Assembly (NCBI GenBank): GCA_964489445.1 | Contig: CAZAYU010000001.1 | Span: 4,394 to 68,393, forward strand | DNA: 64,000 nucleotides | Reading direction: 5' to 3' | Origin: an uncultured Planctomycetia bacterium | GTDB taxonomy: Bacteria; Omnitrophota; Gorgyraeia; Duberdicusellales; 4484-171 | Part shown: positions 56,865 to 58,478 of the stretch, piece by piece | Numbering within the stretch: the stretch's first letter is position 1 | Layout of the letters: every line of letters begins with the position of its first letter | Position numbers and translations under genes: made by a program | Notes under the pieces: model-generated | Databases searched by the model: none | What the model saw: only the letters and a program-made list of their open reading frames with translations | Told to the model about the DNA's origin: nothing

Positions 56865-57719
56865 ATGAAGAAAAATTTTACTATTGTCGAAATAATAATC
56901 GTATTAGTTATAATTAGTATAGTTGCCACATTTGCAATACCTGCCTACAAAAACATTATAGAAAAGTCAAAAGCAGAAACATGTAAAATGAATCTTAGAG
57001 TCCTCTTGGGAGCAGTAGAAACATATGCTATCGAAAACGACGAATTGCCTGCGTCTTTGGGGCAATTACAAAAAAAGGATTTAGAAAAATCTTGGGCAAA
57101 AATATTAAAAAAAGATAACTCTTGGAGAATAAAACTCGTTTACTGGATAGTTGATTTCAAGCAATACGGATTAGCATACGCTCAAGAAGGATGGATAGGA
57201 AGATACATCGGAGACTTAAAATATTTTACCTGCCCTGCTGATGAAACTCCACCTCCAGCTGGACATTCTTACGGAATCAACCAGCTAGTAACGAGCATGC
57301 CTTTTGCCGAATATCGCGTCCTACAAAAAAATAGTATTCCCATTATTGCTGACTGCGATGATCCAATCTTTACTACTACTTTAGCTAAACGTCACAAACA
57401 ATTCACAATTACTGGCACAATTAAATACGCACAAGAGATAAAAAAGGGAGATGAGGTATCTTCCGTGCCTGAAGGTAGTGAGCAGATGATAGATGATGAG
57501 CCTGGGGTGGAGGATGAGCCTGAGGTGGAGGATGAGCCTGAGGTGGAGGATGAGCCTGCAGTAGGCACTCCGTGTGCAGAATGTACTACTACAAAATACA
57601 CATGTATGGATGCATGTGATTCAATACGCCAAGAAAATCCTGAAGAACAATACTTATGGGACATATGCATAAGTAATTGCACTTCCGACAAAATGTTATG
57701 CGAAAATAATTGTTATTAA
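56865..57719 (+). CDS. prepilin-type N-terminal cleavage/methylation-domain protein (pseudopilin-like), paralog 1
   Basis: RBS AGGAGG. MKKNFTIVEIIIVLVIISIVA is the class III signal/FT(L/I)xE motif. The C-terminus carries (DEPxVE)n, encoded by 18-bp tandem repeats at 57495-57563, and a Cys-rich tail. Confidence 0.7.
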   Translation: MKKNFTIVEIIIVLVIISIVATFAIPAYKNIIEKSKAETCKMNLRVLLGAVETYAIENDELPASLGQLQKKDLEKSWAKILKKDNSWRIKLVYWIVDFKQYGLAYAQEGWIGRYIGDLKYFTCPADETPPPAGHSYGINQLVTSMPFAEYRVLQKNSIPIIADCDDPIFTTTLAKRHKQFTITGTIKYAQEIKKGDEVSSVPEGSEQMIDDEPGVEDEPEVEDEPEVEDEPAVGTPCAECTTTKYTCMDACDSIRQENPEEQYLWDICISNCTSDKMLCENNCY

Positions 57720-57788
57720 TTGTAAAGTCTTGCTTTAAATGTCATTGATAAAAAAACACCTAATAACTTTTACAATATGGAGGGACAA

Positions 57789-58478
57789 ATGAAAAAAAGT
57801 TTTACGTTAATTGAGATTGCAATGATTGTGATAATTGCCGGAATTATTGTTACTTTTGCTACGCCTATCTACAGAAATGCTTTAGAAAAATCTAAAGCTG
57901 AAGTTTGCCAAATGAATTTAAAAGTATTGTTGGGTGCTGTTGAAACATACGCCGTAGAAAATGATTCATTACCATCTTCATTGGGACAACTGGATAACAA
58001 ACAATTAAAAAAATCTTGGGCAAAAATATTAAAAAAAGAAAACTCTTGGAAAATAAAACTTGCAAATTTGATAGTTGACTTCAGTCAACACGGTTTAGCA
58101 TATGCTCAAGAAGGATGGGCAAAAAGATATATCGGAGACTTAAAATACTTTACCTGTCCTGCCAACGATAGTACATCAATTTCTTACGGATTAAATCAAG
58201 ACTTAGCAGGAAAATCGTATAACGAATATCGGCAGTTACCAAAAGACTCTACAACAGTTATTGCCGATTCCGCCAGTGGCCTTTTTACTATCGGTGAATC
58301 AGTCAAACGCCACAAAAAATACACACTTACTAGCACAATCTATTACGCTCAAGAAATAAAAAAGAGTGAAAAAATTGAACAACAACAACAACAACAACAA
58401 CAACAACAACAACTGCAGCAGGGAACAGGACAAGGAGGACAAGGACAAGGCGAACAAGGGTCACAGTCACATCGTTAA
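57789..58478 (+). CDS. prepilin-type N-terminal cleavage/methylation-domain protein (pseudopilin-like), paralog 2
   Basis: MKKSFTLIEIAMIVIIAGI. Its core is conserved with paralog 1 (KSKAE.C.MNL.VLLGAVETYA...KSWAKILKK.NSW.IKL..IVDF.Q.GLAYAQEGW..RYIGDLKYFTCPA). The C-terminus is poly-Q then a GQG-rich region. Confidence 0.7.
   Translation: MKKSFTLIEIAMIVIIAGIIVTFATPIYRNALEKSKAEVCQMNLKVLLGAVETYAVENDSLPSSLGQLDNKQLKKSWAKILKKENSWKIKLANLIVDFSQHGLAYAQEGWAKRYIGDLKYFTCPANDSTSISYGLNQDLAGKSYNEYRQLPKDSTTVIADSASGLFTIGESVKRHKKYTLTSTIYYAQEIKKSEKIEQQQQQQQQQQQLQQGTGQGGQGQGEQGSQSHR
58380..58412 (+). repeat. (CAA)11 trinucleotide microsatellite inside pseudopilin paralog 2, followed by CTG CAG CAG
   Basis: Read directly. 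It encodes Q11 in frame. The same stretch read in another frame yields the spurious poly-N ORF 58366-58635. Confidence 0.9.

Follow-up and report, generated by a model that had tools for sequence, protein, structure and literature searches.

Pilins are known to act as membrane signals to sensors. In Caulobacter, PilA signals to c-di-GMP (cyclic di-GMP) control through PleC-PleD (PMC7196804), and pilin-sensor systems have been described in Pseudomonas for PilA and PilS as well as for the minor pilins, PilY1 and FimS (PMC6058289, PMC5979040). In these systems, the membrane-embedded N-terminal part of the pilin helix (alpha1N) is read by a membrane sensor, and two-component or second-messenger output changes as a result. 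The sensors there are histidine kinases, and the pilin that they read is the main subunit of the filament and has a canonical leader. Here, we describe a stretch of 64,000 nucleotides (the window) from contig CAZAYU010000001.1 of an uncultured bacterium of the Omnitrophota, in which two tandem pilin-like genes stand directly before a gene for a c-di-GMP enzyme with a CHASE2 domain. As in the systems above, a pilin-type alpha1N is paired with a membrane protein, here a c-di-GMP enzyme. The partner would be a phosphodiesterase of the CHASE2-HD-GYP type, to which the pilin-like gene appears dedicated, and the coupling is proposed from gene order alone. To our knowledge, CHASE2 is a widespread extracytoplasmic sensor domain with no established signal, ligand or partner. 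A protein that is almost always encoded directly before one orthologue group of CHASE2-HD-GYP genes is thus a concrete, testable candidate for such a partner.

The genes of the locus and the features within them are the following.

56865 to 57719, forward strand: paralog 1, a pilin-like protein of 284 amino acids starting with MKKNF (open reading frame (ORF) list and translation), with the leader MKKN, a pilin alpha1 helix (F5, E9 and P26, corresponding to F1, E5 and P22 of mature pilins), a conserved head (C40, C123-P124, S135-Y136-G137, D163, R176-H177), an acidic linker and an 8-Cys module

57495 to 57558, forward strand: in-frame 18-bp tandem repeat GATGAGCCTGAGGTGGAG in paralog 1, encoding DEPxVE units, 3.6 copies (TRF program, 97% matches, score 121)

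57561 to 57716, forward strand: C-terminal 8-Cys module of paralog 1, predicted to be a two-helix hairpin

57789 to 58478, forward strand: paralog 2, a pilin-like protein of 229 amino acids starting with MKKSF (ORF list and translation), with the leader MKKS, the same core as paralog 1 and a low-complexity tail of Q11 and GQG

58380 to 58412, forward strand: (CAA)11 microsatellite in paralog 2, encoding Q11 (TRF, AAC/CAA in 12/11 copies at 58378 to 58413, 100%)

58422 to 58459, forward strand: imperfect 15-bp/9-bp repeat in paralog 2, encoding GTGQGGQGQGEQG (GQG; TRF, 58423 to 58459)

58532 to 60805, forward strand: membrane phosphodiesterase with CHASE2, a probably degenerate GGDEF and HD-GYP (CHASE2 1.4e-44, HD_5 2.5e-42)

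The two pilin-like genes are 69 bp apart, and 53 bp (58479 to 58531) lie between the second and the sensor gene. The ATG of paralog 1 has AGGAGG 6 nt upstream, the longer in-frame starts at 56838 and 56859 being less well placed, and the start of paralog 2 is preceded by GGAGGG. By BLASTP, the proteins are identical at 120 of 199 positions (60%, E 7e-89), the similarity stops at about residue 198, and the tails past that point are unrelated; at the DNA level, the copies share 76% identity across 300 nt. The two ORFs are an old tandem duplication of one gene, which belongs to an undescribed family of type-IV-pilin-derived proteins. An earlier sequence-only reading of the window had described them as tandem paralogs with a conserved core and unrelated tails, which the alignment bears out; its figure of about 60% identity also stands, with the similarity running for about 199 residues and not for the 150 or so that it gave.

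That reading had mentioned the downstream CHASE2/HD-GYP gene only as a side remark. The gene is indeed immediately downstream, and it is the most informative feature of the locus because its pairing with the pilin-like genes is conserved across the family. Its protein carries a periplasmic CHASE2 domain (residues ~31 to 280) between a transmembrane segment (3 to 30) and a transmembrane cluster (281 to 364), followed by the HD (at 621) and HHExxDGxGYP motifs of HD-GYP proteins, the latter as HHESFDGSGYP at 674 to 684. Both motifs are intact and are invariant in 12 orthologues. Between the transmembrane cluster and HD-GYP, residues ~372 to 417 form a short GGDEF-like stretch that scores below the threshold (21 bits against 23.8), which is probably a degenerate, non-catalytic GGDEF domain.

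At all loci except one, a CHASE2-HD-GYP gene is immediately preceded by one or more family genes on its own strand. The linked loci are the window and its near-identical counterparts (L001 to L004 and L114 to L116), L005 to L013, L015, L016, L017 to L027, L112 and L113; as some of them resample one locus (L005 to L008 with L017; L011 to L013), they amount to about 20 distinct contexts. The pairing was seen in all 11 of the recovered GTDB species representatives of Omnitrophota. The gap to the sensor gene is 20 to 183 bp between called genes, and in L017 to L027, where it could be measured only between the ends of tblastn matches, about 200 to 530 bp. Most loci have a single family copy upstream of the sensor gene; the window has two and L009 has three, and L024 has one on each side. 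The pairing is kept where the upstream IleRS-DksA-LspA-RluD-AroA block is missing (L015, L018 and L020 to L027), with rpsF-ssb-rpsR-rplI-dnaB in its place in L015, and it is likewise kept despite downstream changes, with ValRS in some loci, other genes in L009 and L010, and a relocated YjbQ in L016. Sensor identity among the paired loci falls to 27-35%. The pilin-like genes and the downstream CHASE2-HD-GYP gene form a conserved cassette, and its persistence through divergence, changes of both flanks and duplication is hard to explain without selection on the pairing.

As a comparison, a scan of metagenome data with the sensor alignment, seeded on the HD-GYP motifs, returned 80 loci with generic HD-GYP proteins, and none of the 80 had a gene with the family core; this is a weak control, since none had a CHASE2 match either, and it says nothing on how often CHASE2-HD-GYP genes have a pilin-like partner. 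The three genes of the window are probably co-transcribed. No terminator-like site was found between them on the forward strand, in a scan that stayed close to the shuffled expectation and is uninformative, as is a promoter scan at or below that expectation. A search of 56000 to 59000 with Rfam detected no c-di-GMP riboswitch or other RNA, apart from a chance snoRNA match (E 0.62). In the upstream block of the window, the first 34 nt of an ORF for a DksA/TraR-type zinc-finger protein overlap the end of the IleRS gene (53619 to 53652, as mechanically listed); the IleRS and DksA genes abut or overlap similarly in L009, L010 and L011, and a gap of about 125 nt separates them in L005 to L007.

The closest relatives of the N-terminal part of these proteins are the type IV pilins and the pseudopilins of the type II secretion system (T2SS), such as PilA, GspG/PulG and ComGC. 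The first 60 residues or so are homologous to alpha1 of type IV pilins and GspG, and when the family profile was compared with the PDB, it matched chains of GspG, PilA, PilE and geopilin in residues 5 to 65 only, with F5 aligned to the mature F1. Like these proteins, the family has a leader that is short and basic, followed by F, T, E and P at positions +1, +2, +5 and +22, and an alpha1N of about 21 hydrophobic residues. This alpha1N is predicted to belong to a helix some 52 residues long, with a loop region rich in helices and then an antiparallel beta-sheet behind it. In the window proteins, FTIVEIIIVLVIISIVATFAIP and FTLIEIAMIVIIAGIIVTFATP show the class III features, namely F (+1), E (+5) and a hydrophobic stretch about 21 residues long. 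F1, T2, E5 and P22 (F5, T6, E9 and P26 of the precursor) are invariant or nearly so in the family alignments: E9 is invariant in alignments A1 and A4 and reaches at least 90% in A2, P26 is invariant in A1 and is kept to at least 90% in A4, and at least 90% of the rows of A1 and A4 have F5.

The differences begin at the cleavage site. The leader is only four residues long (MKKx), and at -1 paralog 1 has N and paralog 2 has S, so that the Gly(-1) of the prepilin peptidase site is absent from both translations. In bacterial class III leaders, this terminal Gly has been described as invariant (PMC4471445). Both paralogs fall below the cut-offs of the pilin models, with 12.3 and 12.1 bits against 21.2 for Pfam N_methyl (PF07963) and, for paralog 1, 14.4 against 16.3 for TIGR02532, for which paralog 2 was not listed in the NCBIfam scan. 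A GspG/PulG identity was rejected, as the scores for TIGR01710 (37.4 and 36.8 bits) are far below its cut-off of 88.85 and the alignment covers only residues 4 to 65. Among 119 family members, N_methyl is matched by 88 at E<=0.01, and T2SSG, the Pfam model of the GspG head, by three at E>=0.003. Over 126 members, the residue at -1 is S in 39, A in 27, G in 20, N in 16, V in seven and H in six, with a few Y, T, D, Q and F, which leaves the Gly in 16% and another residue in 84%. By contrast, Gly(-1) is present in each of the 15 unrelated pilin N-termini from the fetched loci, including that of an ordinary pilin (KNG|FTLIEL, at 10958) on the Omnitrophota contig L014, which also bears a family member with KKAS|FTLME; losing Gly(-1) is therefore a property of the family rather than of the lineage. 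The sequence-only reading had called both proteins pseudopilins with a class III prepilin signal, a claim that turned on the conserved Gly/Phe cleavage context. The pilin alpha1 helix with F1, T2, E5 and P22 holds, including the Phe of that context, but with N and S in place of the Gly and the model scores below the cut-offs, this is not an established membership.

Further differences from pilins and pseudopilins lie in the head, for which there is no matching model or solved structure. Residues ~60 to 205 matched no Pfam or NCBIfam model, and a family profile search detected no sequence relative of the head in the PDB and no pilin head. A model of the core built with AlphaFold2 (AF2) from a 37-sequence alignment (pLDDT 87.8, pTM 0.82) predicts alpha1 at 7 to 58, helices at 70 to 82, 86 to 101 and 110 to 116, and five beta-strands between 136 and 202. 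This predicted order of alpha1, helical loop region and antiparallel sheet fits the pilin 'lollipop', while the fold of the head itself is unclassified. The invariant or near-invariant residues of the family alignments are E9, T22, P26, C40, N43, C123, P124, S135, Y136, D163, R176 and H177. The model and the alignments suggest that the head is a conserved periplasmic domain of about 140 residues, which combines helices with a beta-sheet and has SYG, D and RH motifs as well as the invariant Cys pair, and that alpha1 inserts in the inner membrane. The classical C-terminal D-region of pilins is absent, with the invariant pair C40-C123 and a variable tail instead, and the gene precedes a c-di-GMP sensor gene and does not stand among assembly genes. 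What is new in this family is the head domain, the relaxed cleavage site and the conserved c-di-GMP sensor partner, and what is known is the descent from type IV pilins.

Two other groups of proteins with pilin-type N-termini may be compared. The DUF1559/SBP_bac_10 (PF07596) proteins are pilin-like proteins of the Planctomycetes-Verrucomicrobia-Chlamydiae (PVC) group with a C-terminal H-X9-DG motif (TIGR04294); they typically keep Gly(-1) and form large dispersed paralog families that are not the fixed partner of one sensor gene. They also fuse a pilin N-terminus to a larger conserved periplasmic domain, in a group to which the phylum of the window is related, and they share a conserved Cys and an N-L-K-like motif in the C-terminal part of alpha1 (alpha1C) and a conserved His near the C-terminal strands. 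Unlike them, the window proteins have no PF07596 match at E<=1 and carry H-x9-KY and H-x9-YY in place of the motif, and a DUF1559 identity was rejected. Only four of the 119 members match PF07596, weakly (best E 1.5e-6), the other 115 do not match it, and none has the DG motif. The archaeal bindosome proteins (PMC4471445) resemble the family in having a pilin-type N-terminus on a protein that is perhaps not mainly filament-forming, but they are archaeal, bind sugars through known folds and have no c-di-GMP link.

The family is larger than a word-indexed search, which gave only 18 relatives, would suggest: an exhaustive profile search of 1.84 billion cluster representatives returned 194 full-length matches at E<=1e-30. 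The names supplied by the sources are all Omnitrophota or generic ('prepilin-type', 'PulG', 'ComGC'). A scan of the GTDB species representatives found 11 metagenome-assembled genomes of the Omnitrophota type, some of them under placeholder 'Planctomycetia' titles. Matches in Sumerlaeota, Myxococcota and Verrucomicrobiae were rejected as members, since only the pilin helix aligned. The species of the window is absent among the GTDB r232 species representatives, in which the best family match is 48% identical, while the metagenome data of JGI, ENA and NCBI include contigs of about 0.5 Mb that carry sequence identical to that of the window. Omnitrophota are uncultured and are thought to be largely host-dependent or host-associated. 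The papers on the phylum that we checked do not mention the pilin-like family, CHASE2 or c-di-GMP, and in the searched literature we found no paper that combines CHASE2 with a pseudopilin or DUF1559 with a prepilin.

Past the core, the proteins differ widely. Tail length runs from 1 to 378 residues in 141 full-length members. In paralog 1, the DEPxVE linker (residues 207 to 234) has a pLDDT below 50 in the full-length AF2 model and is predicted to be disordered, and the Cys module that follows is predicted to form a hairpin of helices 238 to 257 and 262 to 281. Its eight cysteines are spaced C-x2-C-x6-C-x3-C-x16-C-x3-C-x6-C-x3-C. Among 155 members, counted with a stricter tail boundary, 58 tails have at least two cysteines, and the count is even in 51 of these, with spacings that are mostly x3 and x6. 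The framework C-x(2,3)-C-x6-C-x3-C, loop, C-x3-C-x6-C-x3-C recurs in paralog 1, P0001, P0050, P0058 and P0075, and P0002, P0044, P0154 and P0023 have close variants of it. Apart from the cysteines, no similarity could be detected between these tails; phmmer searches among the family tails found near-identical alleles only, and the Cys module alone returned no candidates as a database query. In many members, the tail thus includes a putative scaffold hairpin with cysteines of the disulfide type. Other tails are of low complexity or built from repeats, such as GKGK, poly-D, EGEEEG, QELR coiled-coil repeats and WCKDKDGNFYQS repeats.

Tail turnover is rapid. For instance, P0005 and P0007 share 85% identity across 196 core residues, and their tails show no similarity. 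In their DNA, a comparison of two related genomes, L112 (524 to 3754) and L113 (79 to 3277), gives 89.8% identity for the core and 76% for the sensor gene, so that the pilin-like core is better conserved than the CHASE2-HD-GYP gene, and the roughly 400 bp between the two, which hold the tail and the spacer, cannot be aligned. We also considered whether the P0005 and P0007 tails were frameshifted versions of one sequence and found no support, as the tail DNA is unalignable. L113 has duplicated segments after the stop codon that are readable in other frames. Some tails are unusual in other ways. In P0047 (590 residues), a module of about 19 residues that contains Cys, WCKDKDGNFYQSxxPCP, is repeated in tandem up to about 14 times, and a single copy of it closes the tails of P0059 and P0061. 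The third tandem paralog of L009 (8807 to 9877) ends in GCFIATAAYG...LSEFRDKYLL and then a hydrophobic/basic end, which resembles a signal for sorting or anchoring appended at the C-terminus of the pilin-like protein.

The repeats in the window tails deserve separate consideration. The 18-bp array and the CAA tract are the two top-scoring tandem repeats of the whole 64 kb by TRF, and the tails are encoded by in-frame repeats, as the sequence-only reading had noticed. It had also proposed that these repeats are prone to slipped-strand changes of length that do not shift the frame. The second part is correct, since units of 3 and 18 bp are both multiples of 3, so that only the length of the linker can change and no on/off switch is possible; a phase-variable contingency locus with frame or promoter switching was rejected on this ground. 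As to the first part, the 18-bp array does differ by exactly one unit between otherwise near-identical contigs, and (CAA)11 has the same length in eight of eight independent contigs. The purity of the CAA tract is weak evidence of recent slippage, as CAA makes up 76% of the local Gln codons and the probability of an 11-codon run is about 0.05. Between the window and L001, there are no substitutions and a single 18-bp gap in 9,023 aligned bases; L002 and L004 are alike, and L003 has one additional single-nucleotide polymorphism. The protein P0001 is paralog 1 less exactly one DEPEVE unit. The long allele is found on seven contigs from JGI samples and the short allele on eight contigs from ENA assemblies, one of them of 508 kb; in regex counts of full units, the window and three JGI contigs have three and four ENA contigs with k141 names have two.

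The tails may be compared with the mycoplasma surface proteins of the Vlp type, which vary in length through in-frame tandem repeats at contingency-type loci. The likeness lies in the in-frame repeats within a disordered segment outside the conserved domain and in the one-unit difference in copy number between near-identical genomes; unlike those systems, there is no frameshifting switch, only one polymorphism was seen, and the trinucleotide tract is invariant. An alternative, which we hold to be less likely than not, is that the repeats are neutral low-complexity spacers and that the single-unit polymorphism, instead of reflecting ongoing slipped-strand hypermutation, arose in assembly or is fixed between two populations. 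The alleles divide perfectly by data source, which makes an assembler effect or a fixed population difference inseparable from ongoing slippage, and the constancy of (CAA)11 points the same way. On the other hand, each allele was assembled repeatedly, including on contigs of about 0.5 Mb, and the k=141 that the contig names suggest exceeds the length of the array (46-64 bp), so that an assembly collapse is not expected. The indel is also the sole difference in 9,023 bases, which fits an elevated local rate, and related genes have other in-frame repeats, such as a 30-bp unit in 2.9 copies in L011 and protein repeats in P0007, P0026, P0031 and P0047. The tail is a compact natural example of localised diversification, with in-frame repeats and a fixed Cys framework that has hypervariable residues in between.

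The data show the anatomy of the proteins, the size of the family, its loss of Gly(-1), the conserved pairing, the rapid tail turnover and the one-unit polymorphism, and they support a pilin-derived protein, inserted in the inner membrane and with a periplasmic head, that is genetically coupled to a CHASE2-HD-GYP phosphodiesterase. Co-transcription, the disulfides, a physical or functional coupling to CHASE2 and any adaptive value of varying the tail are inferences. As to the function of the cassette, we propose, at somewhat short of an even chance, that the pilin-like protein is a membrane or periplasmic partner of the CHASE2 sensor, as an input or a co-sensor. The conserved alpha1N, the head or both would contact the transmembrane or CHASE2 part of the sensor, and the state of the pilin-like protein would tune c-di-GMP hydrolysis, that state being the membrane pool of subunits, their withdrawal into a filament, or whatever the tail contacts. 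The tail would be free to change through repeat slippage, indels and wholesale replacement because it lies outside the conserved interaction core. Several observations weigh against this proposal. Adjacency is the sole link between the pilin-like protein and the sensor, and one family member (P0170, at 3536 to 4204 of L014) lies between truA and rplM-rpsI with no sensor gene nearby, the only unlinked case. The residue at -1 is small (G, A or S) in 68% of the members, and prepilin peptidase might still accept it. The conservation of F1, T2, E5 and P22 is what one would expect of processed and polymerised subunits, which favours a filament role. Finally, type IVa pili are commonly encoded in Omnitrophota (PMC10066038), so the assembly machinery is probably elsewhere in the genome.

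These last points are the strength of a second explanation, which we consider possible but doubtful, namely that the proteins are minor pilins or pseudopilins that are cleaved by a prepilin peptidase of relaxed specificity, assemble into a type IV pilus or a T2SS pseudopilus and expose a putative surface tail. Slippage and tail replacement would then vary an adhesive or antigenic tip, and the HD-GYP enzyme would only regulate piliation or be co-regulated with it. The homology of the first 60 residues to the alpha1 of GspG and PilA, the N_methyl matches of most members, the order of secondary structure elements that fits the 'lollipop' (PMC4471445), the Cys modules of disulfide type and the acidic or low-complexity linkers typical of exposed appendages, the abundance of type IVa pili in the phylum and the polymorphism in repeat units all agree with it, as does the small -1 residue. 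Nevertheless, Gly(-1) is kept in few members and in neither window gene, with N, H, D, V, Y or Q in its place, even though unrelated pilins in the same sampled loci keep it. Assembly genes, which the sequence-only reading had suggested looking for, are likewise missing: no pilus or T2SS gene came up in Pfam scans of the 30 larger upstream ORFs of the window or among its ORFs of 52-64 kb, the 64-kb window holds no pilus assembly or prepilin peptidase gene, and in the loci examined there is almost none beside the family gene, the sole exception being a gene for a secretin that lies about 6.4 kb downstream in L009. What recurs beside the family gene is the sensor gene. Both repeat units are divisible by 3, so that there is no on/off phase variation, and (CAA)11 is invariant.

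A third possibility is that the proteins are never cleaved and are bitopic proteins of the inner membrane, in which the former pilin helix is only an anchor, resembling the archaeal bindosome or the PVC DUF1559-type proteins. They would have a periplasmic job that is independent of CHASE2, such as binding, envelope tethering or scaffolding, and their adjacency to the sensor gene would be that of an inherited operon. The non-Gly residue at -1 and the very short leader would be natural in such proteins, the head matches no pilin head in the PDB, four members weakly match SBP_bac_10/DUF1559, one member is unlinked, and bindosome proteins offer a precedent for non-filament proteins with class III signals (PMC4471445). 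We find this improbable nonetheless. The pairing persists at 27-35% sensor identity, with both flanks changed and with two or three copies; a mere anchor needs no invariant E5 within the membrane helix, nor F1, T2 or P22; and the window proteins lack both the DUF1559 match and its H-X9-DG motif, which H-x9-KY and H-x9-YY replace. Returning to the proposed partnership with CHASE2, a bolder version of it, which we regard as rather unlikely as a whole, is that a pilin was turned into a dedicated signalling subunit, with the head and alpha1N docking on the CHASE2 sensor and gating HD-GYP, and the tail serving as an exchangeable probe for cues. The repeat linker and the Cys-scaffold hairpin, with its hypervariable residues between the cysteines, would then probe external or envelope cues.

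If this bolder version is correct, the family would provide the first candidate protein partner for CHASE2 and a new route of input from pilins to c-di-GMP in an uncultured and largely host-associated phylum. For Omnitrophota, a variable-tailed envelope protein wired to c-di-GMP turnover would be a plausible device for sensing contact or surfaces. The family also bears on how pilins are recruited to signalling besides fibre building, and, as its N-terminus remains under strong selection (F1, E5, P22) though the Gly of the peptidase site has been given up, on how far the annotation 'pilin-like' can be trusted.

The window contains other features that are far from the cassette. In an ORF of 794 residues on the forward strand (13027 to 15755), a helicase domain of the Schlafen group-3 DNA/RNA type (6e-93) is joined to a Peptidase_S24 (LexA-like) domain at the C-terminus, and an ORF of 115 residues in front of it overlaps its start; this unusual fusion could be a defence or SOS-type module. 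Also on the forward strand, a gene for an LpoB-like lipoprotein (18136 to 18732) lies a short way upstream of a gene for a protein of 535 residues (19201 to 20808) with a CsgG/LpoB-like N-terminal part and a trypsin-like peptidase C-terminal domain, with an ORF of 140 residues (18761 to 19183) in between. Finally, the spacer between a GH15 gene and a B12-binding radical SAM gene holds an A-rich imperfect tandem repeat (24231 to 24303) with periods of 7, 14, 20 and 28.

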